64,000 bases of DNA from an uncultured Rickettsiales bacterium. GTDB taxonomy: Bacteria > Pseudomonadota > Alphaproteobacteria > Rickettsiales > Deianiraeaceae. Position 1 is the stretch's first letter, and the number at the start of each line of letters is the position of its first letter. The notes beneath the pieces were generated by a model that worked only from the letters and a program-made list of their open reading frames with translations, was not told the origin of the DNA and did no database searches. Shown piece by piece: positions 1,557-33,996 of the stretch. The translations under genes and the position numbers were made by a program. Location of the stretch: positions 4,749 to 68,748 of the forward strand of contig CAMKKS010000001.1 of the NCBI GenBank assembly GCA_946413485.1. The letters are read 5' to 3'.

Positions 1557-1576
1557 GTTCTTTATATAAAGAATAT

Positions 1577-1612
1577 AAAAAAACACTGTAAAATCCGTTT
1601 CACAGTGTTTTT
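1577..1612 (+). terminator. rho-independent terminator after gp15-like gene
   Basis: AAACACTGT (1581-1589) / ACAGTGTTT (1602-1610) stem, A-run before and T-run after (bidirectional shape). Confidence 0.55.
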
Positions 1613-1649
1613 AAGATAATTATAAAATCCATTTTATAATTTTTAATTT

Positions 1650-1841
1650 TCAATCCCGCCCAGAAGAAGCGGTTAATCTAACTCGATCTTCGTGTTCTTC
1701 TATCCAAAACACATCTTCTTCAGTAATTTCATATTTGTCGTAATAATCTTCACCCCAATATTGAAATCCGTCAATTGTGATTTTCTTATTTTTATCAATT
1801 TTCTTTAAAGCTTTTATCAATTCACCTACTGTATATTTCAT
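1650..1841 (-). CDS. hypothetical small protein
   Basis: 63-aa ORF abutting 1842-2102, same early-type transcription unit; TGA stop. Confidence 0.5.
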   Translation of the reverse strand: MKYTVGELIKALKKIDKNKKITIDGFQYWGEDYYDKYEITEEDVFWIEEHEDRVRLTASSGRD

Positions 1842-2102
1842 TTAAATATCCTCGATGTAGTAAAGCTTGTAACCGTTCTTGAGATAATCGTCCAAAGCTG
1901 AGTATAAACAGAATTTTTCGCAAGTTTCTTCGTGTTCTTTAGACCAGCAATATTGTTCGTCTGAAGCAAATTTATATGATATAATCAATTTTCCTTCTAA
2001 TGTTGTTTTGAGCACAACAAATTCAACTAAATTGTGTAACGAATTTCCCTTTAAAGGGGTTGTTTTGCTTAATTCAATTCTAACCATTTTTACGTTCCTC
2101 AA
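1842..2102 (-). CDS. hypothetical small protein
   Basis: 86-aa ORF; GAGGAACG SD and TTTACA-N16-TATAAT promoter directly upstream. Confidence 0.55.
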   Translation of the reverse strand: MRNVKMVRIELSKTTPLKGNSLHNLVEFVVLKTTLEGKLIISYKFASDEQYCWSKEHEETCEKFCLYSALDDYLKNGYKLYYIEDI

Positions 2103-2123
2103 TCATTGCTTGACTATGATTAT

Positions 2124-2151
2124 ATTATAACGTATTTTAAAGATTTGTAAA
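2124..2151 (-). promoter_or_regulatory. sigma70-type (early) promoter TTTACA-N16-TATAAT
   Basis: Minus strand reads TTTACA (2151-2146), 16-nt spacer, TATAAT (2129-2124); followed by conserved leader ATAATCATAGTCAAGCAATGATTGAGGAACG. Same cassette recurs at least 9 times in the window. Confidence 0.6.
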
Positions 2152-2230
2152 CAGTTATTTTAAGATTTTTTATCAAAAATCCTATTTAATTGTATTAAAA
2201 TTGATAAAATTCTCAAAAATAGTTTAAAAT

Positions 2231-2280
2231 ATACAGTATACAGTATTGTTTATCTGTATTTAGATACTGTATATAGTATC
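2231..2280. repeat. ACTGTATA-type palindromes (second copy of family at 26986-27040)
   Basis: ATACAGTATACAGTAT ... GATACTGTATATAGTATC followed by TTTTGAGATTTTT; related to GATACTGTATACAGTAC...TTTTGAGATTTTTG at 26983-27100. Confidence 0.5.
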
Positions 2281-2327
2281 TTTTGAGATTTTTAAAATTT
2301 TTTAAAGCTTTTTGAAGGTCAAAAATA

Positions 2328-2360
2328 ACGTATTGAGCTTCGCTCAAAAGTCTATTACGT
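2328..2360. repeat. ACGTAAT hairpin family member
   Basis: ACGTATTGAGC..loop..AAAAGTCTATTACGT flanked by A-run and T-run. Confidence 0.6.
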
Positions 2361-2416
2361 ATTATTTAAAAATTTTTGATTTTCTTATATAAAGATATCT
2401 TTAAAAACACTTTAAA

Positions 2417-2452
2417 TGAGTTCTAGTTTTCGGATTGAAAGTTCTAGTTTTG
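2417..2452. repeat. GTTCTAG box pair
   Basis: GAGTTCTAGTTTT and AAGTTCTAGTTTT 22 nt apart, followed by AAAAATTCGATATTAAGGTATTTTTATATAAAG as in other islands. Confidence 0.5.
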
Positions 2453-2510
2453 AGTAAAAATTCGATATTAAGGTATTTTTATATAAAGAAAAATAAATAA
2501 TTTAAAAACT

Positions 2511-2990
2511 ATGAAATATAAATCGTATAAAGGTTGGTATAAGATAATCAACACTCAAAAATTTATCAAACCGCTTGACGAATATATGGAATCAACTGTC
2601 TTTAAAGACGGGAATCTTTTTATTCAATACAAGTCAAAACTCGAATATATCGCTTTCAGATTTGCTGATTTAAATCCTAAAATTGTTAAATTCTCTGTTG
2701 AACCTTTTAATATAAAATATATAAAACCGCTTGATAACAAAGAGCACAGATATTATATTGATTTATTTTTAGAATTTCAAACAGGTGAAAAATTTTTAGT
2801 TGAAGTAAAATCTAAAGCTGAAACACATCCACCTAAAAAACCTAAATCATTTAACGCAAGAACAGCGAATAATTACAAAACCGCGTTAGAAACATATATT
2901 GTGAATACCGCAAAATGGAAAGCTGCGAAGAGTTTCGCTGAATTGAATAATATGAATTTTTTGATTTTAACTGAAGACGAATTGAAATGA
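2511..2990 (+). CDS. PD-(D/E)XK-type nuclease (TnsA-N / T4 gp4 head-completion-nuclease-like)
   Basis: 159 aa; ..HRYYIDLFLEF..GEKFLVEVKSKAE.. gives D-x(n)-E-V-K catalytic-type motif preceded by SKLEYIAFRFAD; family assignment by eye only. Confidence 0.45.
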   Translation: MKYKSYKGWYKIINTQKFIKPLDEYMESTVFKDGNLFIQYKSKLEYIAFRFADLNPKIVKFSVEPFNIKYIKPLDNKEHRYYIDLFLEFQTGEKFLVEVKSKAETHPPKKPKSFNARTANNYKTALETYIVNTAKWKAAKSFAELNNMNFLILTEDELK

Positions 2991-3061
2991 TATTAAAAGC
3001 TTTTATTTAAAATATTTTTAAAGTATTTTATATATAAGGAAATTGAAAAAATTTTTTTATT

Positions 3062-3150
3062 ACGTTATTCAAAATAACAAAAAGGTCATTACGTAATAAT
3101 TCATTTAATGAAAAATAACGTAATGACCTTTTCAAAAAAGCTTATAACGT
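3062..3150. repeat. two ACGTAAT-family hairpins
   Basis: ACGTTATTCAAAATAACAAAAAGGTCATTACGT (3062-3094) and ACGTAATGACCTTTTCAAAAAAGCTTATAACGT (3118-3150). Confidence 0.6.
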
Positions 3151-3151
3151 A

Positions 3152-3709
3152 TTATTTAATATTTTTTAAAATATCTTTAAGAGCTTTAAACAAATGTTTA
3201 AATTTAACAACTTCTGTTTCAAGATTGATGTTTGAAACTTCAGAACCGATTTTAATAAACTGATAAAATCTTTCAAAACATTTAATCAAAGAGAGTTTTC
3301 TATAAATCAACTCATTTAAACAGTTTTCGTTTGTTTTTTGAACTTCTTGAGCGTAAGCAAATGTTTTGTTAACGTCATACTCATCAAGATTTATATCCAT
3401 CTCAAAAAATTTATCGTCTCTTAAATCCCACTCGGGAACATTCAGCCCTAATCTTGAAGCTGCATCCTTAAAAAGATTTGAACAAGGTTCTAAAAGCTCG
3501 TAAAAATTATCAATTTTAGCTTTATTTCGTAAAAGCTGAAGATCGTACTCATGATTAAAGAAAATATCGTCTCTGAAAGCTTTAGCATATTTTAAAGTAT
3601 CAAGAGTTATCTTTTCGGCACCGCCAACAAAATCCTTAAATTTAACAATTTTAGGTAGCTTATGATTATCAGCTTCGTTTATATTTTTTAAATATTCTTT
3701 AAATAACAT
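3152..3709 (-). CDS. hypothetical protein with CTS-like N-terminus
   Basis: 185 aa; MLFKEYLKNINE/ADN (I-N-E site). Confidence 0.6.
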   Translation of the reverse strand: MLFKEYLKNINEADNHKLPKIVKFKDFVGGAEKITLDTLKYAKAFRDDIFFNHEYDLQLLRNKAKIDNFYELLEPCSNLFKDAASRLGLNVPEWDLRDDKFFEMDINLDEYDVNKTFAYAQEVQKTNENCLNELIYRKLSLIKCFERFYQFIKIGSEVSNINLETEVVKFKHLFKALKDILKNIK

Positions 3710-3736
3710 TTTAAAATTCCTTTGAAATATTTAAAA

Positions 3737-3744
3737 TATTTATA
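3737..3744 (-). promoter_or_regulatory. T4-type late promoter box TATAAATA
   Basis: Complement of tatttata, 28 nt upstream of ATG 3709. Confidence 0.45.
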
Positions 3745-3825
3745 TTATCAAAGCTCTTTTAACGTCTTTTTAAACTAACGTAATGAACTTTTATGATTGT
3801 CTTATTTTACGTTATAAAAATTTAA

Positions 3826-4200
3826 TTAAATAATTTTATTTTCAGAACAGATAACGATAAACAGACAGGCTGAATCTTCGTCTTTCTTTAAATCTTCAAT
3901 CATATCTTTTAAAAAGATCTTTAAATCTTCTTCAAAATTTTCTGAAGGTTCAGAGTCGGCAAATCTGAAGGAATTTCCATCTTTTTTAAGAATTAAACCA
4001 TATTTGTTTTCAGAACCGTATTGATTTAAAATTTTGGCTACAATCTGAATTCTCTTTGCTTTAATCAGTTGATTAAAAACATTTAAGATAATTCCTAATT
4101 CTTTTGTGAGCTCAGCTTTTGAAGGTGCATCAGAATTACCTGAAATAAACTCGGAAGCTTTTGAAATAATATCAGCTTCTACTAAAAAATCTTTAAACAT
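3826..4200 (-). CDS. hypothetical protein with CTS-like N-terminus
   Basis: 124 aa; MFKDFLVE/ADI (L-V-E site). Confidence 0.55.
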   Translation of the reverse strand: MFKDFLVEADIISKASEFISGNSDAPSKAELTKELGIILNVFNQLIKAKRIQIVAKILNQYGSENKYGLILKKDGNSFRFADSEPSENFEEDLKIFLKDMIEDLKKDEDSACLFIVICSENKII

Positions 4201-4758: not shown

Positions 4759-4833
4759 TGGCTGGGGTAGCAAGATTCAAACTTGCGAATGGCGGGATCA
4801 AAACCCGCTGCCTTATCACTTGGCTATACCCCA
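4759..4833 (-). tRNA. tRNA-Gln (anticodon UUG)
   Basis: TGGGGTA TA GCCAAGTGATAAGGC A GCGGG TTTTGAT CCCGC CATTC GCAAG TTTGAAT CTTGC TACCCCA G CCA; 75 nt cloverleaf, CCA encoded. Confidence 0.85.
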
Positions 4834-4838
4834 ATTTT

Positions 4839-4912
4839 TGGCAGGAACTAAAGGATTTGAACCCTTACAAAATGATTTGGAATCATTTGTGCTACCATTA
4901 CACCAAGTCCCT
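4839..4912 (-). tRNA. tRNA-Trp (anticodon CCA)
   Basis: AGGGACT TG GTGTAATGGTAGCAC A AATGA TTCCAAA TCATT TTGT AAGGG TTCAAAT CCTTT AGTTCCT G CCA; 74 nt. Confidence 0.85.
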
Positions 4913-5011
4913 AAAATTTTAACAATCATTATCCTTTTTAAAGGTCCTTCGATTGTTTTAAGGCTATTCACAAACTTAACCTTAAAGATATTTTAAAACA
5001 TCTTTAAAAAA

Positions 5012-5098
5012 TGGAGCGGGCCTCACGAGAATTGAACTCGGGCTTGATAAATCCTTTAACTAGTATATCTAAATACCAAGTAAACCATTCACCCGCAC
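5012..5098 (-). tRNA. long (type II-like) tRNA-like gene, non-canonical
   Basis: Ends ..CGAG TTCAATT CTCG TGA GGCCCGC T CCA with 5' GCGGGTG; about 85 nt. Only stem-loop in the anticodon region is GGTAT-TTAGAT-ATACT (6-nt loop, UAG centre). I could not fold a standard D arm or a 7-bp acceptor. Confidence 0.4.
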
Positions 5099-5106
5099 TT
5101 TAAAAG

Positions 5107-5124
5107 AGGTTCTTTCGAACCTCG
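5107..5124 (-). terminator. GAGGTTC-GAAA-GAACCTC hairpin upstream of tRNA-like gene
   Basis: 7-bp stem, GAAA tetraloop, TTTT after it on the minus strand; copies at 6012-6029 and 6135-6151. Confidence 0.5.
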
Positions 5125-5238
5125 AACAAAGGAAATAATTTACAATTCTATACTTTTCAGGGGGAAATCTTATGATATATCAAATTCAGTTAAATCTTTT
5201 TATTACTTTCTTTAAAATTCATTTTTCTTATCTTAAAG

Positions 5239-5317
5239 TGGCGGGAATGGCAAGACTCGAACTTGCGACACGCAGATTAACAATCTGCCGTTATCTAACC
5301 AACTGAACTACATTCCC
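5239..5317 (-). tRNA. tRNA-Asn (anticodon GUU)
   Basis: GGGAATG TA GTT..AAC G GCAGA TTGTTAA TCTGC GTGTC GCAAG TTCGAGT CTTGC CATTCCC G CCA; 79 nt with a large D loop. Confidence 0.8.
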
Positions 5318-5556
5318 GTTTCAAAATCGTAATAATACAAAGTTATTTTAAATATATTTATATAAAAACCTCGAGAATTTGATTTTCTAACTTTTAAAGT
5401 TTTATTTAAAATTGAATTTTTAAAAATTATTTCAACTTCAACTTCTTCGTTAGGTGTATCAAACCAACCGTATAAAAATAAATCTTCTACATCTTTAAAT
5501 TTTTCAGATTTATTTTTTATGTGTTTTAAAATATTTTTCTTTAATACAAACTTCAT
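5308..5556 (-). CDS. hypothetical protein (doubtful)
   Basis: 82-aa ORF whose 3' end overlaps the 5' end of tRNA-Asn by 10 nt; no homology recognised. Confidence 0.3.
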   Translation of the reverse strand: MKFVLKKNILKHIKNKSEKFKDVEDLFLYGWFDTPNEEVEVEIIFKNSILNKTLKVRKSNSRGFYINIFKITLYYYDFETGM

Positions 5557-5694
5557 AATACATAAATTATTTATCTGAATTTAAAACTCATTATAAAGGA
5601 TTTTAACCCTTAATCAATAATGACCGAAAAAAGAGAGACTTTAAAAATCCTTTTAAAAATTTAACAATCCATTGTTAAAAGTCTCTCAAAATTT

Positions 5695-5763
5695 TAAGAA
5701 CTTCGGGAATTAAACCCGATCCTTCCATCAACGATGACATGCTACCAATAACACCAAGTTCCT
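5695..5763 (-). pseudogene. tRNA-like gene with truncated anticodon arm
   Basis: AGGAACT TG GTGTTATTGGTAGCAT G TCATC-GTT-GATGG AAGGA TCGGG TTTAATT CCCGA AGTTCTT; good acceptor, D and T arms but a 3-nt loop (GTT); about 68 nt; no CCA. Confidence 0.35.
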
Positions 5764-5905
5764 AAAAATCGTGAAACATTTTAAAAATTCTCAAAATTGA
5801 TTGCCTGACCTAATTTAATAGGTAAACTTCAATCAGGCAGCGATGGTTAAACCCAAAAATTACACAGCAGCAAGAGCATTCCAACTAGACCGCTAGTTCT
5901 TAAAA

Positions 5906-5980
5906 TGGTGCTGGTGGAAGGAATTGAACCATCAACCTACTGATTACAAGGCAGTTGCTCTACCTTTGAGCTACACCAGC
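5906..5980 (-). tRNA. tRNA-Thr (anticodon UGU)
   Basis: GCTGGTG TA GCTCAAAGGTAGAGC A ACTGC CTTGTAA TCAGT AGGTT GATGG TTCAATT CCTTC CACCAGC A CCA; 75 nt, one mismatch each in the anticodon and T stems. Confidence 0.8.
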
Positions 5981-6011
5981 ATTTTTTAAATATTTATAAT
6001 CTTTCTCGAAA

Positions 6012-6029
6012 GAGGTTCTTTCGAACCTC
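6012..6029 (-). terminator. GAGGTTC-GAAA-GAACCTC hairpin upstream of tRNA-Thr
   Basis: Identical to the 5107-5124 copy. Confidence 0.5.
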
Positions 6030-6051
6030 AAAGGAGAACGTAATATGAAAC

Positions 6052-6130
6052 TGGTGGGCGGTAAGGGATTCGAACCCTTGACCTACGGATTAAAAGTCCG
6101 TTGCTACTAAACCGACTGAGCTAACCGCCC
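6052..6130 (-). tRNA. tRNA-Lys (anticodon UUU)
   Basis: GGGCGGT TA GCT..AGC A ACGGA CTTTTAA TCCGT AGGTC AAGGG TTCGAAT CCCTT ACCGCCC A CCA; 79 nt. Confidence 0.9.
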
Positions 6131-6134
6131 GAAA

Positions 6135-6151
6135 GAGGTCCAAAGGACCTC
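6135..6151 (-). terminator. GAGGTCC-TTT-GGACCTC hairpin upstream of tRNA-Lys
   Basis: 7-bp stem flanked by T-runs on the minus strand; variant of the 5107/6012 hairpin. Confidence 0.5.
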
Positions 6152-6218
6152 AAAAAAGATAAAATATCTATTAAGTTAATTCTAATTAATACTGTTTTTT
6201 AAGAGAACAATAAAACTC

Positions 6219-6512
6219 TTAAATTTTTCTAATTTCCTTTTCAAGGTTTTTTAAAACTTCACCAAAATTTATAAGCATTTCAGGTTTGAAGTTCATATTA
6301 TCCTCGAGAGAAACTTTTAAAATCTCAAAAATTCCACCCTTAAACATATAAGTAATGAACGAGGTCATTTGTGACCCTGGAACATAAAAATGCCTAGTAA
6401 CAGTGAAATCAGAATCTTTAGATTTTATTTCCGCAAACTTTAAAGGTGTTAATCCGTTTCTTTTACAGATTTTAATAAATTCTAAATCTTTCTCTTCAAA
6501 ATTCATTTTCAT
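6219..6512 (-). CDS. hypothetical protein
   Basis: 97-aa ORF inside the tRNA region. Confidence 0.5.
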   Translation of the reverse strand: MKMNFEEKDLEFIKICKRNGLTPLKFAEIKSKDSDFTVTRHFYVPGSQMTSFITYMFKGGIFEILKVSLEDNMNFKPEMLINFGEVLKNLEKEIRKI

Positions 6513-6924
6513 TCCTTAATTTAACGTTTTATAATCCAGTTTTAAAAACTGAATTTAATCGAATAAATAAGGTTTTTACAGAACCTTTTAACTGTTATCT
6601 ATTAAGACTCTTCTAGTCAAATTTGTATATGAACTGTTTTTTCGGAACAATAAAACCGTGTAATTTTTTACGGAAAACTACAAAACCGCTTTTTTGCAAC
6701 ATAAATCGTTGCGATTTTTACAGAACCGCAAAACTGTCATAGGTCTGTTATATCCCTTATGAATTTTGTTTTGAAATCGTTGTAGTTTTTAATGGAAAAC
6801 TACAAAACCTTCTCTTATGGTATGAATACTGTTTTTTTAACGGAACAATAAAACCGTTTTGTTTCTTTTAAAAGTTATACTTATCTTCACAATGCTATGT
6901 TAACTCTTAAAAAGAATTCGTTAA

Positions 6925-6995
6925 AGCCCCTTGACGGACTCGAACCGTCTTCTCCGGCTTGAACGCCGGTATCATAACCCATATACCAAAGGAAC
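6925..6995 (-). tRNA. non-canonical tRNA-like gene, anticodon region UUCAA (possible UCA)
   Basis: GTTCCTT TG GTAT ATGGGTTATG ATAC(C)GGC GTTCAA GCCGG AGAA GACGG TTCGAGT CCGTC AAGGGGC T; good acceptor (2 G-U) and T arm; anticodon stem CCGGC/GCCGG encloses only 6 nt; no CCA; 4 nt from tRNA-Glu. Confidence 0.45.
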
Positions 6996-6999
6996 ATAG

Positions 7000-7075
7000 T
7001 GGCGTTCCCAACGAGATTCGAACTCGTGTTACCGCCGTGAAAGGGCGATGTCCTAAACCACTAGACGATGGGAAC
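7000..7075 (-). tRNA. tRNA-Glu (anticodon UUC)
   Basis: GTTCCCA TC GTCTAGTGGTTTAGGAC A TCGCC CTTTCAC GGCGG TAAC ACGAG TTCGAAT CTCGT TGGGAAC G CCA; 76 nt. Confidence 0.9.
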
Positions 7076-7633: not shown

Positions 7634-8296
7634 TTATTTAAAATTTACAGGCTTCTTTGTTTTTGAACCTGTGAACATTCCTTTAGTGGATTTTGTCTTA
7701 AGATCAGGCGACTTAACCCATTTATCAAGATCTTGTTTAAAGTTTGCTGCATCCATAAACATTTCAGCCATATTCCAAGCGCCTGAAACATCCCAGCCTG
7801 AAATATCGGAATTAAATTTAACCGCTAGATTAAACATATTTGAGAAGCCTCTAGCTTTCTTTGTCACATTCCACTTTGATAAATCACCGCTAAAAACAGC
7901 ATTATTATAAAACATATAATCAAACAGCTGTACATTTGAAACGTTCCATTTTGAAATATCGCCGTTGAATTTTGACTCAGCAAACATCCACGACATATCT
8001 GTCACATTTTTAGTATTCCACTTTGAGATATCACCGTTGAATTTTGAAAGATGGAACATTCCTCTCATGCTTGTAACATTTGAAACATCCCACTTTGAGA
8101 TATCACCGTTGAAGTCTTTAAATTCTTGAAACAAATATGACATATCTTTAACATTTGAAACATCAATAAAGTTTAAGTCACAATTGTTTCCTTCCTTTTC
8201 GATTGTATCTCTTATAATGATTTCCAATTTAAAACGATTTTTTGGTTTTACAGTTTCAGCTTCATTTAATGAGCTTAAAAATTCTTTAAATAACAT
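7634..8296 (-). CDS. DUF285 / BspA-type leucine-rich repeat protein with CTS-like N-terminus
   Basis: Six roughly 24-aa repeats FNGDISKW(D/N)VSNVTxMxxMF; N-terminus MLFKEFLSSLNE/AET. Confidence 0.75.
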   Translation of the reverse strand: MLFKEFLSSLNEAETVKPKNRFKLEIIIRDTIEKEGNNCDLNFIDVSNVKDMSYLFQEFKDFNGDISKWDVSNVTSMRGMFHLSKFNGDISKWNTKNVTDMSWMFAESKFNGDISKWNVSNVQLFDYMFYNNAVFSGDLSKWNVTKKARGFSNMFNLAVKFNSDISGWDVSGAWNMAEMFMDAANFKQDLDKWVKSPDLKTKSTKGMFTGSKTKKPVNFK

Positions 8297-9019: not shown

Positions 9020-9047
9020 ATTATAACGTATTTTAAAGATTTGTAAA
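9020..9047 (-). promoter_or_regulatory. sigma70-type promoter TTTACA-N16-TATAAT
   Basis: TTTACA 9047-9042, TATAAT 9025-9020 on the minus strand; leader identical to the 2102 cassette. Confidence 0.6.
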
Positions 9048-9210: not shown

Positions 9211-9227
9211 AAGCTTTATTAAAAACA

Positions 9228-9260
9228 ACGTATTGAGCTTTTATAAAAAGTCTATTACGT
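9228..9260. repeat. ACGTAAT hairpin
   Basis: ACGTATTGAGCTTTTATAAAAAGTCTATTACGT. Confidence 0.6.
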
Positions 9261-9329
9261 TATAAAAAATTTTTTGATATTCTTTATATAAAGATATTTA
9301 AAAATATTTTAAATTAAAAGCTTTTAATA

Positions 9330-9385
9330 GAGTTCTAGAACTCAGTCAAAACTAGAACTCTCAATTTTAAAACTAGAACTCTCTC
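9330..9385. repeat. GTTCTAGAAC box array (3 boxes)
   Basis: GAGTTCTAGAACTC, AACTAGAACTCTC, AACTAGAACTCTC. Confidence 0.55.
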
Positions 9386-9438
9386 TAAAGTGTTTTTAAA
9401 GATATCTTTATATAAGGAAATTAAAAAAATAAAAAACA

Positions 9439-9514
9439 ACGTAATGACCTTTTCATAAAAGTGTATTACGTTGTTTTTATAACGTAATGAACAATCACAA
9501 AAAGCTCATTACGT
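9439..9514. repeat. two ACGTAAT hairpins preceded by TATATAAGGAAATTAAAAAAA box
   Basis: 9439-9471 and 9482-9514. Confidence 0.6.
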
Positions 9515-9578: not shown

Positions 9579-11432
9579 TTAATAATTATTATAATAATTA
9601 TCAAAACCATCTTCTAATTGTGAAAAATCTCCAAAATCGGAATCATCATATTCAGATATTTTATTTGAAAGCTCGTAAGAATCATCGTCAAAAGAATCAA
9701 AATTTCCGATAACAAAATGCTCATAAAATTTAGATGTATCTTTACAAGCTTTTTCAGGGTCATAAAGATATGAGATAACCCATTCGATATCATCAAAATT
9801 TTTAATATCACAGAAAGGCGCAAAAATTAAAGCTAAAGACATAACCAAATCATCGTGACATCCGTCATCCGCCTGGTATTTGTCATTTTTAAGGATAAAA
9901 GTTGAAAGCTCGGAAACAGTCTCAACATCGTGTAAAATCAAAATTTCGTCGTCTAAAAATGATTTTAAAATATCTAAAATCTGCGGTCTTGTTTTTTGTG
10001 TTGTTCTAAATCCTGGTTCTAAATCTGCCATTTTTCCTTTTTTCTTTTCGTAAAAAAGATTTGGATAATCATAGCTTAATTTAAGAACGCTCGAGATATA
10101 AGTTCCTGCACCTTCGTTATTCTCAACTATGATAAAAGCATTGTTGTAAATCTCACCCCATTCAACTATAAAAACAGGCATTTTTTGGAAATTACACTTA
10201 AAAAGCTGAGCTGTCGCTACCTGTTCAAACGGTTTTGAAGTCAAATCAACAATTTGAATGGCGAAAGCATCCTCACCGGATTTTGCTGGGTCAACAGCTA
10301 AAAAATAGATATGATCTTTTTGAGGTTCTTTGTAGATTTTTAATCTTGAATCTCTTAAGTATTCAGGCTCTTTTGTTGAATTAGAAAGTTTATCCAAAGT
10401 TTCTGCTGACGGCAAAGTCAAAGAAGAACCCAAAAACGAGCATTGGTAATTTTGTAAAAAAAATTTTTCACCGTGCTTCTTAATTGTTTTTTCTTTAAAC
10501 TGTTCAGGGGTTAAAAGATTTCCTTTAGAATCGTATCTCGGTACATCTCGCCAGTTCACAAAGTGATATTTAAAACCGTTTGTTTTATTCTTTGCACCGT
10601 CAACGATTTTCTTAAAATGATTAACTCCGTTTGGTGTACTTATAATTATATTCTTTTTCCAGCCTAAAGCAGATTGTGAAGGGAAAACGGAATCTTCCAT
10701 CTCTTTCCAAACGTTCGATCTGATAAAAGCACACTCATCAATAACGAGAATCGCACAAGTAAAACCTCTGAAAGCATTCTGTCCGGGAACATCAGTCAGA
10801 ATTCTCATTTTTGATTCTGATTCTATTGAGCCTTTATTCCAAACAGTTACACCGACTCTTAACCACATCGGAAGAGCTTCAAAGATATTTTTAACATTAT
10901 TTAAAAATTCTCTTGCTAAAGGTCCTTTGTTTGCGCAAATACCTATATTCATATCACTGCCGAAATTGAATTTGTGCGCAAGGTATATTGAAACAGTTAT
11001 CGATTTTCCCGATTGACGACCTTGGAGAGAGACAATATTCTCGTCGTCACCGTCCATATCTTTTAGGAATTCCACCTGATAAGGTCTTGTTTCAGGAAAA
11101 GTATAACCGGATTTTGTGAGAATTTTAACATAGTTATCTTTAAAATACATTAAATCATTTTTACATCTTTCAATCTCTTCAAGGTGGATTTTTGAAAGCT
11201 TCATTTGAGTAAATGCTTTCTTTTGATCTCTGTTTCCGTTGTTTGAAATTTTTTCACCGAAAGCATCGAGATAAAAGTTATCTTCTGATTTTTCTGTATC
11301 TAAAATCTCTAAAGCAATATCCTTTCCTTCATTTCCGTGAGATCTCAGCTCAGCTAAAAGCTCTGATGTAATTAAATTCTTGTTTGTTTTATAATGTTGA
11401 ATAACTTCAGGTGTAAAAATATCCTTTAACAT
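9579..11432 (-). CDS. terminase large subunit (T4 gp17-like)
   Basis: 617 aa; Walker A LQGRQSGKS (T4: SRQLGKT), Walker B AILVIDECAF, C-terminal nuclease acidic motifs FLAVDPA..GED and DGCHDDLVMS. Confidence 0.9.
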   Translation of the reverse strand: MLKDIFTPEVIQHYKTNKNLITSELLAELRSHGNEGKDIALEILDTEKSEDNFYLDAFGEKISNNGNRDQKKAFTQMKLSKIHLEEIERCKNDLMYFKDNYVKILTKSGYTFPETRPYQVEFLKDMDGDDENIVSLQGRQSGKSITVSIYLAHKFNFGSDMNIGICANKGPLAREFLNNVKNIFEALPMWLRVGVTVWNKGSIESESKMRILTDVPGQNAFRGFTCAILVIDECAFIRSNVWKEMEDSVFPSQSALGWKKNIIISTPNGVNHFKKIVDGAKNKTNGFKYHFVNWRDVPRYDSKGNLLTPEQFKEKTIKKHGEKFFLQNYQCSFLGSSLTLPSAETLDKLSNSTKEPEYLRDSRLKIYKEPQKDHIYFLAVDPAKSGEDAFAIQIVDLTSKPFEQVATAQLFKCNFQKMPVFIVEWGEIYNNAFIIVENNEGAGTYISSVLKLSYDYPNLFYEKKKGKMADLEPGFRTTQKTRPQILDILKSFLDDEILILHDVETVSELSTFILKNDKYQADDGCHDDLVMSLALIFAPFCDIKNFDDIEWVISYLYDPEKACKDTSKFYEHFVIGNFDSFDDDSYELSNKISEYDDSDFGDFSQLEDGFDNYYNNY

Positions 11433-11449
11433 TTTAATATCCTAAAAAT

Positions 11450-11720
11450 ACGTAATGAGCTTTTGAGAAAAGTCTATTACGTTGAAATTCTATATTTTAA
11501 AATTTTTTATTTTATTATATAATATACAGATATAAAAAATTTTTTGTTCTTTAAAAAATACGTTATGAGTTTTTATGAAAAGTCTATTACGTTATTTTTA
11601 AACTGATCATTTTTCGATCAATAAAAAATACGTTATGAGCTTTTATAAAAAGTCTATTACGTTATTTTTGAATGCTCTTAAAAAAATACGTAATGAGTTT
11701 TCGAGAAAAGTTCATTACGT
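11450..11720. repeat. four ACGTAAT hairpins between spike gene and terminase
   Basis: 11450-11482, 11560-11592, 11630-11662, 11688-11720; TATCTGTATATTATATAATAAAA element at about 11515-11545 (inverted copy at about 57125-57150). Confidence 0.65.
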
Positions 11721-11783
11721 TGTTTTTAAAAAATTTCAATTTCCTTATATAAAGATATTATAAAAATATTTAATAAAATACCT

Positions 11784-13763
11784 TTAAACAGTTTTTTCAA
11801 CTCCGTTTGGATTTGGTAGAACTTTTTCAGTTACATTATCATTATCACCAAAAAATTCTTTCGCTTTATCTTCTGTTTTGCTTACAAATTCATCCACTTT
11901 ATCCTGGCAGCACGAACATGAGCACTGATTAACATTACACCAGTTTGGAACGGCACCGCCATCAGGAAGTGACGGGAATTCAAACAACGGAACTTTAATC
12001 ATATTCGCAAAATCAAGATTTATTGTGATTTTTGGTGGAATCTGATTGATAATTCCTATGATACTGTTTATCATATCTAAAATCGGTCTTAAAAACTTCA
12101 TTATCATGCGTCTGAAAACACTCATCAGCTTGATAACCTTTTTAGCAACAATCTTTGCGATAACTCCAACAACAGCGCTTAAAGACACTTTAGGAACCAT
12201 CGGTAAAAGCTTCGTTAAATCTGGCCATGTGATGTTGAAAGTGAGCATATTCTCAAAATCTTCCCATTGCGGCCAGTGAATTTCGTCAATTTCAAACCAC
12301 GAATCAGGGCTTGTCCAGTCACACTTACACTTATGTTGAGATTTATTCTTTGCTTCGCCGTTCGGGTTTCGAGGTTCAACAGTTATTGGTCCGTTAATGC
12401 TTTCAGTTAAAAACTCAATTTCAGACTCATCAATATCACCAAACGAATCAATATGCTCTTTTACGAAATCATTTAAAAGTGATTTTTTAATTTCTTTAGT
12501 TTTATTATATAAAAAACCATTAAATTCGTTTACTTTTTTCTGAACTGCTTCGAACTCTGTTTTTCTCTCTTCTGTGTTTTCTATACTTTTTAATCTGCTA
12601 AAATCAGATTGAAGCTCAGAAACGAATTCTTTGCCTGTTTCGTTTAGAGACTCATTTAAGCTTGATGTTACAGAACCGGCAGAATAAGAATTGACAAAAT
12701 CTTTAGCCATCATAAAGTTCGAACACATAGTTAAACCGTTTAAAGCGGCAATTCCGTTAACATCTAACCTTGTGTTAACATTACACGAGTTTCCGTGAAT
12801 TGAAACATCGCCTGTTCTTGAAGCTAAAACAGCAGAATTTCCTAATTCCAACGAACCATTGTTACACTGAGCAACCAGCTTGTCTTTAGCTTCAATTAAA
12901 CCGCCGCCTGAAGCTAAAATATTAAGTTCTTTCTTACATTCAGCTTTAAAACAGCCTTTATTAGCATGAATAAGAAAATCACCGTCTTGAGACTGTAAGA
13001 CATTAGAATCTTTTGAAGACATTTCAATCTTTTTATCCGAAAGAACTCCGAAATTCCCTTGTGATTTAAAGGAAATATCTTTTTCAGAATTGACTGTTAT
13101 TTGATCTTTTGCGGATAAGTCGATATGACCTGTTCTTGCTCTGAATGTGATATTTTCAAACGCGTCAAAATTGATATTATCAGCTGCGATTGTTATTCCA
13201 CCGAACCGGTCAAATTTTATCGTTGAATGACCTGTGCTGTGAGTGATTGTTATCTCGTTAGAGCCTAAAGAATCATCAAACATTATCTTGTGACCAGAAG
13301 GGGTTTCAATCACAGAAGATGTAAGATATTTCCCTTCGTGAATCTCTTTATCAATTCCTTTAACTTTATGTTTTAAATGAGAGCCTGATGTTTGAAAAAC
13401 ATTCTCTTTAGGAATTGCTTCTGTTGAAACATCAGAAGATCCTTTACGTTTTTCAAACGGTGGTTTTGAATCGAAAAAATCTGTATGCTCTTCAGTTCCG
13501 CCGACCATTACGCCTAAAACTATCGGATGCCAGAAGTCAGAATCAAATTTAACCCATACCCCAGTTCCTTTCTGTAGAACAGCAAAGCTTCCGGTCCCAC
13601 CGAAAAGACCGAACATCGACGGATAAATCACTTCTGCCCATGGCAGAGTATCATCAGAAAAATTATCGTGAACACCGTCAACTCTGATTTTAACTCTACC
13701 ACGACGAAATTCGTCATTATTGTCAACGACGATGCCTGAATAAAACTTATCTTCAAACTGCAT
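11784..13763 (-). CDS. baseplate central spike (T4 gp5-like OB fold + beta-helix, no lysozyme domain) with long C-terminal extension
   Basis: SGIVVDNNDEFRRGRVKIRVDGVH..LPWAEVIYP..GVWVKF..IVLGV parallels T4 gp5 VGVVEDRMDPLKLGRVRVRVVGLH..LPWMSVIQP; then repetitive beta-strand segment; last 300 aa = coiled coil, KCKCDW, hydrophobic 60-aa stretch, CSCSCC. Confidence 0.75.
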   Translation of the reverse strand: MQFEDKFYSGIVVDNNDEFRRGRVKIRVDGVHDNFSDDTLPWAEVIYPSMFGLFGGTGSFAVLQKGTGVWVKFDSDFWHPIVLGVMVGGTEEHTDFFDSKPPFEKRKGSSDVSTEAIPKENVFQTSGSHLKHKVKGIDKEIHEGKYLTSSVIETPSGHKIMFDDSLGSNEITITHSTGHSTIKFDRFGGITIAADNINFDAFENITFRARTGHIDLSAKDQITVNSEKDISFKSQGNFGVLSDKKIEMSSKDSNVLQSQDGDFLIHANKGCFKAECKKELNILASGGGLIEAKDKLVAQCNNGSLELGNSAVLASRTGDVSIHGNSCNVNTRLDVNGIAALNGLTMCSNFMMAKDFVNSYSAGSVTSSLNESLNETGKEFVSELQSDFSRLKSIENTEERKTEFEAVQKKVNEFNGFLYNKTKEIKKSLLNDFVKEHIDSFGDIDESEIEFLTESINGPITVEPRNPNGEAKNKSQHKCKCDWTSPDSWFEIDEIHWPQWEDFENMLTFNITWPDLTKLLPMVPKVSLSAVVGVIAKIVAKKVIKLMSVFRRMIMKFLRPILDMINSIIGIINQIPPKITINLDFANMIKVPLFEFPSLPDGGAVPNWCNVNQCSCSCCQDKVDEFVSKTEDKAKEFFGDNDNVTEKVLPNPNGVEKTV

Positions 13764-13764
13764 T

Positions 13765-15645
13765 TTAGGAATTCCTTAAGTCTTCTCTGATTTTCTTTAA
13801 CTGTTCTTCTTTATAATGTTTTTTATTTTCTAAGTTTTCTATATTAGAAACAAAGATAGAATTAGAAGAAACAAACGAATAATCAGGTTTATTGAAATTT
13901 TTTATTGCGTTATTGATGTTTTCAATATCGATATTAATTTGAGTTATCTGATTTTTAATTCTTTGAACTTCTCTGTCTTTTTCTTCAGAATCAAAAAATG
14001 TTATTGTATCTTTTAAAGAATCTAAAAATTCATTAAAAGCATATTCATAAATCATTTTATCAAATTTTAAAATGTTTCTTAATTGAGTATAATTATTTTT
14101 AACAATTAAAATTGAATCTCTAACGTTTCTTAAAGCATTATGAACATTCGATAATGTTTCTCTGAAATTATTTAATCCCTGTGAAATAAAAGATACTAAA
14201 GAATTACATTCAAAAATACTGTTATTACAGAATTTTATAGAATTCTTAAGATTATTAAATGTAGTTTTAAATTCTTTTGAAATTGATTTAACAGGATTTG
14301 AAATATCAAAAGAATTGAAATTTTCAGGATTTGTATTTTTTGATGTAATAATATCAGGGTCCTTCTTAACTGAAACATCTTTAGGATTATCGAATCTTGT
14401 TAAAAATAATCTTGTAATAATATTTTGCGGCGCTCTGTAATTAAAAGTACAGTTCGAGACAAACCACAAACCAGATAAGTTTTTATCACCTTCTGTCTGT
14501 TTTTCAGCCGATGCTGTGTTGTAAGAAAAATCGGTTTTAACAATCATTCCAGGTTTAAATTCTAATCCGCCTGAAAGATAAACACAAATACTTTTAGAGT
14601 TTATTAAACCTATTCCTTTTCCGAAGATTTTTTCATAATATATTGAAGATAAAAGTCTGTTTGAAGTTCCTGAAATATTTTCGTATTTTTCAGAAAGAAA
14701 ATTTTTATAATCTTCAGGATTATTATTTAATAAAACACAAGAATATAAAGTATTTTCATTTAGTTTAACAACTTTTTTATTTTTACCTACAACATAACTG
14801 ATTTGATAGTTGTTTCTGTCTAAAAGATTAGAATTATCCTTGCCGATTATATAATCGGCAATATAGTATCTTGAAGAGTTAGGAATTCTGTCACTTAAAA
14901 GACTGTCGAATTTATCGAATCTCGATAAAACCGGATGCTGAATCACATGAAAACCTTCAAAATCCTGATAAATCTTAATGTTAAATTTTTTACAATATTC
15001 TTTTAACATAAAGATGGGTGTTTCGTTAATAAATTTAAAATTATTAAATTCATTTTGAACAGTTGAAATTTTAAGATCTTCTGAAATTTCAGATAAACCG
15101 TATTTTTCAGTGTCGTTTTCAACTTTGATATCATCAGGATATTTTGAACATTTTATAATATCTTTTAAAAATTCGCAGACATTTTCAACGGGTGAAAAAT
15201 CATAAACTTTGTTATAAATTTCAGCATAAGATTTTTTAGAAGCTTCTAAAAATTCAAAACCATGAATATCACAGCAGAAAACATTATAAAAAATACCGTC
15301 GTTACTTTGAACTTCAGATTTTTTTAATTCTGTTATAAAGAATTTTCTCGAAATTTTTTTATTTGTTATGTTTTCTATTAAAGATATTTCAAGAATTAAA
15401 TCTTTATAATTATTCTCAGGATTTTTATAACCTAATTTTTCAAATAATGAATTGTGAGCTTTAAAAGCACAAAGAATAAAAGGCTGAACATAACTTTGAG
15501 TAAAATCGATAGAAGGGATAATCTCACCGGTATTGATAAACTGATTATCAACTTGCAGTGGCTGTGTTTGTGATTTTGTTATTAAGGAAATACTTAAAGT
15601 TCCCTTTCTACCTGAATTTTTTAAAAGTTCGTTAAAACTACTCAT
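13765..15645 (-). CDS. virion structural protein, possibly baseplate hub (gp27-like by position)
   Basis: 626 aa, 1 nt from spike gene and overlapping upstream gene; assignment by synteny only. Confidence 0.35.
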   Translation of the reverse strand: MSSFNELLKNSGRKGTLSISLITKSQTQPLQVDNQFINTGEIIPSIDFTQSYVQPFILCAFKAHNSLFEKLGYKNPENNYKDLILEISLIENITNKKISRKFFITELKKSEVQSNDGIFYNVFCCDIHGFEFLEASKKSYAEIYNKVYDFSPVENVCEFLKDIIKCSKYPDDIKVENDTEKYGLSEISEDLKISTVQNEFNNFKFINETPIFMLKEYCKKFNIKIYQDFEGFHVIQHPVLSRFDKFDSLLSDRIPNSSRYYIADYIIGKDNSNLLDRNNYQISYVVGKNKKVVKLNENTLYSCVLLNNNPEDYKNFLSEKYENISGTSNRLLSSIYYEKIFGKGIGLINSKSICVYLSGGLEFKPGMIVKTDFSYNTASAEKQTEGDKNLSGLWFVSNCTFNYRAPQNIITRLFLTRFDNPKDVSVKKDPDIITSKNTNPENFNSFDISNPVKSISKEFKTTFNNLKNSIKFCNNSIFECNSLVSFISQGLNNFRETLSNVHNALRNVRDSILIVKNNYTQLRNILKFDKMIYEYAFNEFLDSLKDTITFFDSEEKDREVQRIKNQITQINIDIENINNAIKNFNKPDYSFVSSNSIFVSNIENLENKKHYKEEQLKKIREDLRNS

Positions 15646-16153
15646 CTAAAATCTCTATATTATTTTGATACTTTTCAACAATTTCATTTATATCGGAAAT
15701 TACTTCAGGTATTAAGTTAACATCAATTACTTTTAAATATTGAAATTTAAGGTTTTTTGAATTATAAAAAATATCTAATTTATTATAAAGATCTTTATAA
15801 GAACGATCTGATAATTTTTTATAAGGGTCATTAAAGACTTTCTGTTTATAATTTTCGATATCGGCATCAATTGCATCTAAAATGATATCGTTTTCATAAG
15901 GCATATCATAAATCATATCTCGATTATTTAAGATTAAAATAATATCGTAATAATTAGTGTTTTTATAATAATCAAAACATAATTTTTCAATTTTAGCGCC
16001 TTGCTCAACTTTGAGATATTTAAAATAATTTGACGGTAAAGAATTTAAATATACTTTTATTTTATTTTTACAAATAGAATTGTAGTCGAAAATTTTTAAA
16101 ATTTTCAACCCGTTGTAAATTTCAAAATTGAGGTAATTTAAAGTTTTGTCCAT
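15638..16153 (-). CDS. hypothetical (structural operon)
   Basis: 171-aa ORF overlapping the next gene by 8 nt. Confidence 0.45.
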   Translation of the reverse strand: MDKTLNYLNFEIYNGLKILKIFDYNSICKNKIKVYLNSLPSNYFKYLKVEQGAKIEKLCFDYYKNTNYYDIILILNNRDMIYDMPYENDIILDAIDADIENYKQKVFNDPYKKLSDRSYKDLYNKLDIFYNSKNLKFQYLKVIDVNLIPEVISDINEIVEKYQNNIEILDE

Positions 16154-21767: not shown

Positions 21768-21795
21768 ATTATAACGTATTTTTTAAGTTTGTAAA
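21768..21795 (-). promoter_or_regulatory. sigma70-type promoter TTTACA-N16-TATAAT
   Basis: TTTACA 21795-21790, TATAAT 21773-21768. Confidence 0.6.
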
Positions 21796-21878: not shown

Positions 21879-21907
21879 ATTATAACGTATTTTTTTAAGT
21901 TTGTAAA
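21879..21907 (-). promoter_or_regulatory. orphan copy of the early promoter cassette
   Basis: TTTACA 21907-21902, N17, TATAAT 21884-21879; followed only by a remnant (AATTCAGTTTCAAATCAAACTCTTTGT) resembling the 3' end of 21927-22142, no ORF. Confidence 0.5.
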
Positions 21908-22142: not shown

Positions 22143-22174
22143 TATTTAAACTCCGTTTCAAATTTATGATTATA

Positions 22175-22202
22175 TTATAACGTATTTTTAAAAGTTGTAA
22201 AT
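22175..22202 (-). promoter_or_regulatory. sigma70-type promoter TTTACA-N16-TATAAT
   Basis: TTTACA 22202-22197, TATAAT 22180-22175; back-to-back with the + strand promoter 22235-22262. Confidence 0.6.
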
Positions 22203-22234: not shown

Positions 22235-22262
22235 TTTACTTTCTTTAAAAATACGTTATAAT
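22235..22262 (+). promoter_or_regulatory. sigma70-type promoter TTTACT-N16-TATAAT
   Basis: TTTACT 22235-22240, TATAAT 22257-22262; AAGAGGA SD then ATG 22294. Confidence 0.6.
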
Positions 22263-33963: not shown

Positions 33964-33996
33964 AATAATTTCAGAACTTAAATGAATTTAAAAAAT

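Follow-up and report, generated by a model that had tools for sequence, protein, structure and literature searches.

The 64-kb stretch of DNA analysed here (64,000 nucleotides, hereafter the window) is from a T4-like myovirus with about 29% G+C, and its intergenic regions carry a family of 33-nucleotide (nt) imperfect palindromes, several of which lie just upstream of the gene for the large terminase (TerL). We propose that these units act as intrinsic terminators or insulators that are leaky and mostly bidirectional, and that they form a family specific to this lineage, which sits in promoter cassettes and is homogenised by ectopic recombination. Judging from the sequences and their placement, we consider this proposal somewhat more probable than its negation. 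Each palindrome has an A-run on one side and a T-run on the other, so polymerase coming from either side would meet a hairpin and then a run of U's, and the hairpins would also mark the 3' ends of transcripts. Together with promoters (sigma70-like, the T4 late box TATAAATA, or a second repeat that we call the M box), the units would form terminator-promoter cassettes that isolate single genes or small groups of genes: terminase, capsid, portal/neck, tail fibre, endolysin, phosphoesterase, and flagellin. Termination is probably incomplete, given how weak many of the copies are, and this would permit tandem arrays as well as the three units that lie in 5' untranslated regions (UTRs; units 11450, 57028, and 57071, each named by its first position). 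Ectopic recombination between copies would spread the family and keep the copies similar; it would also lead to conservation without compensation, to flips, arm swaps, and changes in copy number, and to insertions and deletions at the borders of units.

The motif ACGTAATGAGC has 33 matches in the window at one mismatch or fewer, as compared to 0.44 expected, and none of 100 shuffles reached 33. A strict catalogue of the form ACGT-N25-ACGT lists 33 units, each exactly 33 nt long; together with a 35-nt variant at 3778, this agrees with a preliminary description of this DNA that had counted about 34 copies, in tandem sets of up to four. The interval where the repeat was first reported holds four of them (11450, 11560, 11630, and 11688). 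All 33 units are intergenic and they are confined to 13 intergenic regions; the overlaps of units with the open reading frames (ORFs) 35016-35267 and 55907-57055 arise because the starts of these ORFs are over-extended. The outer ACGTWAT is invariant irrespective of the inner pairing. About half of the occurrences of ACGT in the window are inside units, and the overall count is near expectation (135 vs. 144), which rules out avoidance of ACGT, or a restriction site, as the explanation for the pattern.

A unit typically combines one constant arm, which we call a (half-site ACGTAATGANCTTTT; as a 3' arm it reads AAAAGNTCATTACGT), with a variable arm of type b (AGAC), c (ACGTTATGAAGATTT), d (ACGTTATTCAAAAT), e (ACGTTATAAGAAAAT), or f (ACGTTATCACAAATT). 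Position 10 of the a-arm is the only base that varies freely (G, A, and C occur ten times each). It had been reported that an asymmetric mismatch, with GAG opposite AGA, is conserved in most copies. The asymmetry is real, but the exact GAG/AGA combination is found in just 8 of the 33 units, and even in the broad sense (an AGA-like arm opposite a GAN arm) it accounts for 17 of 33. In the other 16 units the arms differ (ACGTTATGAAGATTT, ACGTTATTCAAAAT, ACGTTATAAGAAAAT, and others): either positions 5, 6, and 10-13 are where the mismatches lie, or an inner stem is missing altogether, and these units fold like shuffled sequence (z about 0). The consensus motif is present as reported, but it was given on the wrong strand for RNA: as most genes lie on the - strand, what appears in the mRNA is the reverse complement, ACGUAAUAGAC...GCUCAUUACGU.

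For 15 stop codons, a unit follows at a distance of 1-161 nt, in most cases less than 75 nt, and four of seven convergent junctions carry units, with their a-arms facing inward. In the direction that places the a-arm 3', at least five of the 8 nt after the unit are T in 23 of 31 cases, and in the opposite direction this is so in 21 of 31 cases. These counts fit the bidirectional terminator shape that had been suggested and rule out a T-run in the sense direction only. The observation that copies lie just past stops was also correct, as unit 57183 is 5 nt past the stop of gene 57221-58039.

Some units are coupled to promoters. Units lie roughly 11-13 nt upstream of sigma70-like promoters for the phosphoesterase (42930), the flagellin (55809), and gene 55907-57004 (57183). 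The 11 strongest promoters of the form TTTACA-N16/17-TATAAT have no adjacent family unit, and most units have no such promoter. The T4-type late box TATAAATA occurs 30 times, including 23 times in the non-coding 16% of the window, and is typically 20-30 nt ahead of the start codons of late genes. The core of the M box, TCTTTATATAAAGA, differs from the late box by a single base. Of the 16 M boxes, 13 are directly next to a unit, and the polarity is the same in each case. Both the neck gene and TerL of a relative whose terminase is 78% identical (L018) have a hairpin, an M box, and a Shine-Dalgarno sequence (SD), in this order, ahead of the ATG. Ordinary, unique terminators that contain G+C are also present, at 43465-43490 (-), at 1579-1612 (-), and at 4262-4290 of the relative L013; the terminator AAAGGACCTTTAAAAGGTCCTTTTTT is directly after the capsid gene and is followed by a family unit, and another is a 15-bp stem at a convergent junction.

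The array upstream of TerL illustrates this arrangement. The unit farthest from the terminase (11688-11720) has two a-like arms, with predicted folding energies of -10.3 kcal/mol for the sense strand and -13.5 for the antisense strand, and is called terminator-like by a consensus scan. It is 63 nt past the stop of the gp5-like gene (11784-13763), and an M box (TCTTTATATAAGGAAATTGAA, 11735-11755, - strand) that is invariant in relatives lies in between. The next unit (11630-11662, -) is of type b/a (sense -6.4, antisense -9.5 kcal/mol), and its arm type differs among relatives. The third (11560-11592, -) is a b/a unit with an ATAACGT variant and a weak hairpin (sense -4.3 kcal/mol with z of -1.2, antisense -7.7); in relatives, c/a or b/a units occupy this position. 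Between the third and fourth units is a motif that we call N (11496-11523, +), with the palindromic -10-like sequence ATTATATAAT. It is conserved in relatives, it recurs inverted at 57142-57169, and by its sequence it is a candidate for the promoter of TerL.

The last unit of this array (11450-11482, -) is in the 5' UTR of TerL, and two relatives at 97% identity or more have kept both its position and its sequence. Its sense RNA reads ACGUAAUAGACUUUU-CUC-AAAAGCUCAUUACGU (-8.7 kcal/mol; antisense -10.6) and continues with AUUUUU-AGGA, where AGGA is the SD, up to the terminase ATG at 11432. This unit had been placed just upstream of the terminase SD, which is correct, but the gap is 6 nt to the SD and 17 nt to the ATG, not 12. 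Since it is only 6 nt before the SD, it must be transcribed into the TerL mRNA.

Closely related phages differ at the units. We compared the window (64 kb out of a genome of about 179 kb; other public assemblies contain the identical phage as well, with contigs that reach 178,656 bp, and the samples in which it occurs include ERZ12289769 and SRR12081295) to relatives at 91-97% nucleotide identity and to others with 78% and 60% identity of the terminase. In three of the close relatives (L001, L010, and L013), genes are about 96% identical to those of the window and the spacers that bear units are 72-88% identical. The portal/neck cassette of L001, at the site of unit 33997, is 93% identical over 98 nt to the window's cassette at 9228 and 72% identical to its own orthologue. 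In L010 (a 96% relative), each of the four units that follow the capsid gene has another type or another orientation. In L013, 1.37 kb is inserted at the 3' edge of unit 35322, which adds three genes and one more unit. The array upstream of TerL has 4, 5, and 5 units in three phages whose terminases are at least 97% identical, with 5' arms and linkers swapped; what stays constant is the M box, the N motif, and the unit next to the SD. From this turnover we infer that recombination is the homogenising force.

The same comparisons show that the family is restricted to this lineage. The search of related phages proposed in the preliminary description does find the family in the close relatives and in L018, but not in a relative whose TerL is 60% identical (L019) or in Vibrio phage Va1, which has individual terminators instead. 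We thus reject sharing with the nearest sequenced phages, as represented by these two. L018 has arrays on both sides of TerL despite having other neighbours there (endonuclease VII and DNA ligase, which replace the gp5-like gene and small ORFs of the window); its dominant unit type is different, and its units include well-paired homotypic ones of -16 and -20 kcal/mol. We did not find the family in IMG/VR beyond one close relative, nor in 185,579 species genomes. As there was no match in those genomes, the family was not borrowed from a sequenced host, and we also reject the idea that the phage is present as a prophage.

Some of the units bound larger non-coding modules of about 250 nt, which have the order hairpin, M box, palindrome ATTAAAAGCTTTTAAT, three to four copies of GAGTTCTAG(AACTC/TTTT), M box, hairpin. 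Module sites are at 9220-9479, 42922-43458, 51363-51684, 24963-25202, and 54375-54913, and the inverted ends of the modules are 79-85 nt long. The largest array of GTTCTAG repeats (54521-54774, about 12 copies) has M boxes and no hairpins. Candidate roles for the module are an operator array, a small convergent transcription unit, or a mobile module.

The modules raise the possibility that the repeats are selfish or neutral: either the palindromes themselves (MITE-like) or whole modules with inverted ends of about 80 nt might be spread by recombination and tolerated. The long terminal inverted repeats would fit with this, as would the presence or absence of modules between relatives: in L002, one M-GTTCTAG module is absent and an extra unit takes its place. 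(The junctions of this replacement fall inside other units, where the flanking A- and T-runs mask any target-site duplication.) Many copies are decayed or do not fold, and the expansion is restricted to one lineage, both of which would also be expected of selfish repeats. However, the units are placed non-randomly relative to stop codons, promoters, and convergent junctions; their orientation bias is maintained despite flipping; arrays on both sides of TerL persist in L018 with other neighbours; and the SD-proximal unit is conserved. Overall, we think that a selfish or neutral origin is very unlikely to account for the family.

Another reading gives recombination at the units an active cause. 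A phage protein might bind, nick, or cut the constant arm and the adjacent run in DNA, as a duplex or as an extruded hairpin; the hot-spot behaviour would then be an active process. Models for such a site include the REP/RAYT or IS200/IS605 hairpins, polar roadblocks like the stoperators of mycobacteriophages, and nick sites for clamp loading. The fixed length of 33 nt, the outer ACGTWAT that is invariant whatever the inner pairing, the combination of one constant with one variable arm, and the fact that pairing is lower than chance (see below) all fit with such a site. Clusters of alternating orientation have fixed linkers, as in BIMEs: the 10-nt linker TGTTTTTATA joins units at 9471/9482, 43203/43214, and 57060/57071. 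Units are found at the junctions of indels and replacements, and a gene for a TnsA-like endonuclease is located between units. On the other hand, when we scanned about 20 of the window's proteins for HUH/RAYT enzymes or homing endonucleases, we found only the TnsA-like protein and a sub-threshold match to LAGLIDADG in the ORF for the neck protein, so none of the scanned proteins is of the HUH/RAYT type or otherwise matches. Also, the centres of the two outer half-sites are separated by 26 bp, so that they face opposite sides of B-DNA. Finally, recombination in T4-type phages requires only short homology (PMC2839356), so no dedicated enzyme is needed. We therefore regard a DNA-level site as quite unlikely.

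The units are also biased in orientation. In our catalogue, the GAGC...GTCT orientation on the + strand outnumbers its reverse by 14 to 3, in keeping with the preliminary description, and two of the three copies that seemed reversed (33997 and 51422) belong to + strand transcription units. Among the 49 distinct copies whose sense strand is unambiguous, the a-arm is the 3' arm in 35 and the 5' arm in 9, with 5 ties (binomial p = 1e-4), so the proposed co-orientation with transcription is borne out. The AGAC arm is 5' in 17 of the sense-assigned copies and 3' in 2. Within the window, the a-arm is 3' in the direction of transcription for 14 of 18 units between co-directional genes, and at convergent junctions, the units that are proximal to genes follow the same rule (3062+/3118-, 22630+/22789-, and 51369+ and 51422+). 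Orthologous sites have flipped between relatives (33997 vs. L001, 42930 vs. L010, and 24963 vs. L002); because the bias persists despite these flips, it is not mere inheritance.

The T-runs, the stability of the hairpins, and the M box all leave this preference for a constant 3' arm without an account. The orientation of the hairpin is not fixed relative to an adjacent M box, as the a-arm is adjacent in 8 cases and distal in 6. The antisense strand folds more stably than the sense strand in GAG/AGA units, including all four units upstream of TerL, but a rule that the sense strand is always weaker, which would make these polar terminators, is ruled out by the GAA/GAC subtypes (such as 27375 and 43418), where the difference is reversed or null.

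We then asked if the palindrome is maintained as a helix, using 85 distinct 49-nt copies from the window and its relatives. These are equal in length and align without gaps, so pair counts can stand in for a covariance model. We counted pairs across the 15-bp stem and the 8-bp extension from the A-run and T-run, and for comparison, we re-dealt the 3' arms among the copies (500 shuffles). The fraction of cells that are paired is 70.7%, versus 74.1 ± 0.6% in the shuffles, which is below all 500 of them, and the covariation score is 0.079, below the 0.123 of the shuffles. In the 15-bp stem, 4 pairs never vary (ACGT), 1 has double changes, and 10 only break or wobble. At stem positions 5, 6, 12, and 13 there are no double changes, and every variant yields A·A or T·T. 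Pairing is below chance because a unit combines one constant arm with one variable arm, and the variant arms avoid complementary partners. The compensatory changes that had been suggested as a check on the 15-bp stem are thus lacking, and since pairing is below the shuffles as well, the units are not a helix that is maintained by compensation; a structure conserved by covariation is ruled out. A known RNA family is ruled out as well: a search of Rfam, also suggested in the preliminary description, gives only 7 tRNAs in the window at the gathering threshold, and when 11380-11830 was scanned permissively, the sole match was a spurious one to a plant miRNA, far below threshold.

Predicted folds vary widely across the family. 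Canonical units have -7 to -15 kcal/mol and z of -2.5 to -4.4 relative to shuffled sequences, and with the flanking A- and T-runs, the helix can extend to about 22 bp. Many units are at -0 to -5 kcal/mol, and those that we call class II (such as 22630 and 43171) fold like shuffled sequence (z about 0). The minimum free energy fold of the sense strand of a b/a unit does not have a 3-nt internal loop: its 7-bp lower and 5-bp upper stems are connected by an A-U and a G-C pair, with a C bulged out below these pairs in the 3' arm and an A bulged out above them in the 5' arm. An alternative staggered register, whose G-C and A-U pairs never vary, leaves position 10 of the a-arm unpaired. The preliminary description had argued from a conserved internal loop to a recognised structure. 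Our results do not support this argument: half of the copies lack the loop, several cannot form the hairpin, and the type and number of copies vary freely between near-identical phages. A recognised site in RNA or DNA would best explain the constant arm together with the orientation bias, but nothing we tested requires one.

One such possibility is an RNA-level element, in which a factor from the phage or the host recognises either the shape of a hairpin with staggered bulges or the constant 3' arm, and so imposes the orientation. In the sense RNA of a b/a unit, this shape would be built from a 7-bp lower stem and a 5-bp upper stem capped by a triloop, with a G-C and an A-U pair between the stems, flanked by a bulged A below and a bulged N above. 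The factor might be an antiterminator, a nuclease that processes the RNA, or a regulator that stabilises it or controls its translation. The biases of 35 to 9 for the a-arm and 17 to 2 for the AGAC arm are consistent with this idea, given how often units flip. So are the sense fold, which takes the staggered-bulge register; the free position 10 of the a-arm, which is the bulged base in that register, while AGAC is invariant; the reach of the helix with its flanks; and the unit at the terminase SD, which is the only member of its array that is conserved among relatives. However, no compensatory change backs any register, half of the copies lack the motif and some cannot fold, neither copy number nor type is conserved per locus, there is no match in Rfam, and we did not identify a candidate factor. 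This makes recognition at the RNA level unlikely in our view.

A more general form of this idea is that the units are oriented cis-acting sites that are read by a phage factor dedicated to them. This factor would recognise the constant arm, as RNA (AAAAGNUCAUUACGU) or as the corresponding DNA, and the partner arm would be deliberately non-complementary, so as to leave a 2-bp step between a bulged A and a free bulged base. If so, the phage would have a genome-wide polar device for RNA processing, antitermination, or stabilisation, or, at the level of DNA, for REP/RAYT-like or strand-specific nicking, for instance at sites where the clamp for late transcription is loaded. Such a device would also drive the shuffling of cassettes. 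We would not put much weight on this proposal.

Returning to leaky terminators, several of our results count against that reading as well. The stems are A+U-rich and mismatched, at -0 to -15 kcal/mol, and class II units fold no better than shuffles. A scan for the terminator consensus across 11 units in 1-20 kb called only the whole of unit 11688 and the inner stem of 2328. Unit 11450 separates the terminase SD from every possible promoter, and for that reason it cannot terminate efficiently. Termination alone does not call for arrays of 4-5 units. Nor does a plain terminator predict that the 3' arm is constant and the 5' arm variable, and it offers no reason for a preferred orientation when the T-runs are alike in both directions and the difference in stability between sense and antisense is inconsistent across subtypes.

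The closest known systems are the PeSL stem-loops of T4-type phages, which were shown experimentally to be terminators and recombination junctions (PMC2839356, PMC4122927). A defining trait of PeSL cassettes is that mini-circles form by recombination of the copies on either side. Like PeSLs and PmSLs, our units are repeated, conserved, intergenic stem-loops in T4-like myoviruses with a lineage-specific consensus; they are combined with promoters into terminator-promoter cassettes; and they are found at insertions, deletions, and replacements between close phages. In 3 of the 13 regions (at 42930, 55809, and 57183), the order of stem-loop, sigma70-like promoter, SD, and ATG is that of a PeSL. 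In contrast to PeSLs, most of our units are not coupled to an early promoter, and the strong TTTACA-N16-TATAAT promoters do without units; the units instead pair with late boxes, with the palindromic M box, or with nothing. PeSLs are "usually not" in structural regions, and g17 served as the PeSL-free control in RB49 and phi1 (Arbiol et al. 2010, PMC2839356; Comeau et al. 2014, PMC4122927), whereas our units are within the structural module: on both sides of TerL/g17 and at the capsid, portal/neck, tail fibre, and baseplate genes. PeSLs have not been described as long, A+T-rich imperfect palindromes of a fixed 33 nt, nor with discrete types of arm, a 3' arm that is constant, or a biased orientation. 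Our units also form arrays of 4-5. The units are not PeSLs in the strict sense; their fixed-length palindrome, arm types, and arrays are more reminiscent of REPs and BIMEs.

REPs are asymmetric imperfect palindromes of about 35 nt that are extragenic, often past stops, and prone to recombination, with roles in termination and in stabilising the 3' ends of mRNAs. Our units share the imperfect palindrome with a conserved asymmetry and the extragenic location, often after stops. They also resemble REPs in being found alone or in clusters, where the orientation alternates and the linkers are fixed, and in having several subtypes. But they are in the genome of a virulent-type phage, at roughly one per 2 kb, and we saw neither a RAYT/HUH or Y1 domain among the proteins that we scanned nor a GTAG-like tetranucleotide at the 5' end.

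The resemblance to other systems is weaker. Bidirectional intrinsic terminators also have an A-run, a palindromic stem-loop, and a T-run, and are found after stops and at convergent ends. However, the stems of our units have only 2-3 G-C pairs and built-in mismatches, so many look too weak to terminate; their sequence recurs nearly verbatim about 34 times, in arrays; and some are between a promoter and the SD. The RNase III sites of phage T7 are longer two-stem structures with a defined internal loop, they number a few per genome, and they leave a 3' hairpin on the upstream mRNA. These sites too are intergenic hairpins with a conserved distortion that are read in the sense orientation, but our units lack covariation and have the distortion in only half of the copies. 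Mycobacteriophages also have dozens of short conserved intergenic repeats per genome. The stoperators of Cluster A are asymmetric, are oriented with transcription, and act via a known repressor; they and the 17-bp dyad repeats of Cluster O, whose function is unknown, are protein-binding sites of 13-17 bp without terminator anatomy.

These comparisons suggest why the family matters. In PeSLs, modular shuffling by repeated terminator-promoter cassettes is limited to accessory regions and is coupled to early promoters. In this lineage the arrangement is different and denser: one 33-nt palindrome is reused about every 2 kb inside the structural module. The units bracket both core genes (terminase, capsid, portal) and imported genes (flagellin, phosphoesterase), and their turnover is visible at 91-97% identity. 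If they are leaky two-way terminators, then they could be a way for an A+T-rich phage, whose 8-bp late promoter easily arises by chance on both strands, to insulate its genes, and a route by which core genes become portable cassettes. A constant 3' arm that keeps to one orientation despite flipping hints at a direction-sensitive step in termination, RNA processing, or recombination.

The remaining units are as follows, in order along the window. A GAG/AGA unit (2328-2360) is in the divergent region upstream of the TnsA-like gene. A d/a unit (3062-3094, +) is proximal to the + strand gene 2511-2990 at a convergent junction and forms almost no hairpin; its a-arm faces that of 3118-3150 (-), which is 1 nt past the stop of the - strand gene 3152-3709. 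The 35-nt variant (3778-3812) is degenerate. The module at 9220-9479 is bounded by a b/a unit (9228-9260, -) and, at its opposite end, by an ACAC/GACC unit (9439-9471, -), to which TGTTTTTATA links an exception to the orientation rule (9482-9514, +), 64 nt past the terminase stop. Four extragenic units in alternating orientation (22630 +, 22687 -, 22744 +, and 22789 -) fill a convergent junction at 22630-22821, and the outer ones follow the orientation rule for their adjacent genes.

Moving on, a b/a unit (24963-24995, -) is upstream of an M-like box, a late box TATAAATA (24896-24903), and the start of a tail-fibre-like gene at 24873. Unit 25170-25202 is 36 nt past the stop of gene 25239-25997 and is followed by an M box and GTTCTAG repeats. 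There are two more b/a units on the - strand, at 27120-27152 and at 27375-27407; the latter is 21 nt past the stop of gene 27429-27896. Unit 33997-34029 (+) is between divergent late promoters (TATTTATAAATA, 33956-33967) and the + strand neck gene at 34099, and a GAG/AGA unit (35001-35033, -) is downstream of the neck gene, with an M box at 34966-34986. These two units are exact reverse complements, so at 33997-35033 the + strand neck gene is bracketed by perfect 33-nt inverted repeats 1 kb apart. An inversion of the neck gene would not be recent, because the neck is also opposite to the portal in Va1. A c/a unit (35322-35354, +) is at a convergent junction, 44 nt past the endolysin stop.

Around the capsid gene, a b/a unit (42930-42962, -) is 12 nt upstream of TTCACA-N17-TATAAT (42889-42917) and the phosphoesterase gene, in a PeSL-like layout. 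Two + strand units joined by TGTTTTTATA (43171, d/a, and 43214, b/a; 43171-43246) are both exceptions to the orientation rule. Unit 43418-43450 (-) is 67 nt past the stop of the major capsid gene, with the unrelated G+C hairpin terminator at 43465-43490 preceding it. Two units past the + strand baseplate gene 50457-51341 (51369 and 51422; 51369-51454, +) are both oriented for + strand transcription. Unit 51646-51678, with two a-like arms (sense -15.3 kcal/mol), is 23 nt past the stop of the - strand gene 51702-53210. A c/a unit (55809-55841, -) is again PeSL-like in layout: TTAACA-N17-GATAAT follows after about 11 nt, and then come an SD and the ATG of the flagellin gene (55728). An f/a unit (55865-55897, -), of the type that dominates in L018, is 9 nt past the stop of gene 55907-57004, whose 5' UTR contains two units (57028 and 57071; 57028-57103, -) downstream of the promoter-like sequence at 57142-57169. 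Lastly, a b/a unit (57183-57215, -) is past the stop of gene 57221-58039, as mentioned above, and 13 nt upstream of TTTAAA-N16-TATAAT. In tandem arrays we also see "bridge" palindromes that are made up of a 3' arm, a T-run/A-run linker, and the next 5' arm (3091-3121, 11659-11691, 22659-22690, 51398-51425, and 55838-55868). Going by these sequences, the RNA or single-stranded DNA of an array could fold in two competing registers.

As for the phage itself, the window encodes the gp23 major capsid protein (43518-45020), the gp20 portal (32305-33927), the gp18 sheath (29735-32203), a T4-type TerL (9579-11432, - strand, with its ATG at 11432), a gp5/VgrG-like hub (11784-13763, - strand), and proteins of the gp15, neck, and baseplate types. 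The - strand has 67 of the 79 accepted ORFs (about 85%). Megablast of 10000-16000 gave no nucleotide match among sequenced phages, and a search of IMG/VR with TerL for related loci found none. By capsid protein, the closest phages are the Vibrio phage Va1 group (60% amino acid identity) and then the Campylobacter CP220/CP21 group (43%).

We also noticed some features of the promoters. Back-to-back late boxes serve divergent pairs of late genes at 563-574, 33956-33967, 37878-37896, and 49824-49835; at three of these sites, the pair makes the perfect palindrome TATTTATAAATA, and at 37878-37896 the boxes are 3 nt apart. Regions of tRNAs and small genes are marked by strong sigma70-like promoters (TTTACA-N16-TATAAT). 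Six of the 11 strong early-type promoters (2124-2151, 9020-9047, 21768-21795, 21879-21907, 22174-22201 on the - strand, and 22235-22262 on the + strand) read ...AAAATACGTTATAAT and share AAAATACGTTAT with the A-run and outer arm of the hairpin. The e-type arm ACGTTATAAGAAAATC and the promoter sequence ACGTTATAATATAATC differ at two bases, and given this similarity, the hairpin arms and the -10 region of the promoters may have a common origin. A cluster of seven tRNAs (Gln, Trp, Asn, Thr, Lys, Glu, and one more; 4759-7075, -) has three near-identical early promoters just upstream (7110, 7409, and 7506); the tRNA at 6925-6995 has an aberrant anticodon loop (ARAGORN reports "tRNA-???"; 31 bits in Rfam).

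Several genes near the units are worth mentioning. It is unusual for a T4-like phage to have a flagellin gene (54913-55728, -). This one encodes a full-length, minimal flagellin of 271 amino acids (Flagellin_N, E = 2e-43; Flagellin_C, E = 1e-23; E = 3e-69 against the best flagellins in PDB); it has its own sigma70-like promoter (TTAACA-N17-GATAAT) and repeat-bearing spacers on both sides. The gene for the TnsA-like endonuclease (2511-2990, +; PF08722, E = 3.5e-18) is on the minority strand, between units 2328 and 3062/3118. Its homologue in L018 (12795-13274) is also followed by a unit, and the neighbour there is oriented differently. A protein with DUF285 ("Mycoplasma") repeats is encoded in the early region (7634-8296, -; E = 3e-50) and is kept in L018 (9022-9813). 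The terminase homologues of some relatives contain an intein (PF14890), including one that is 97% identical over the aligned part (47% of the query), and L019 has a DNA polymerase that is interrupted by an intein (1386-4016).

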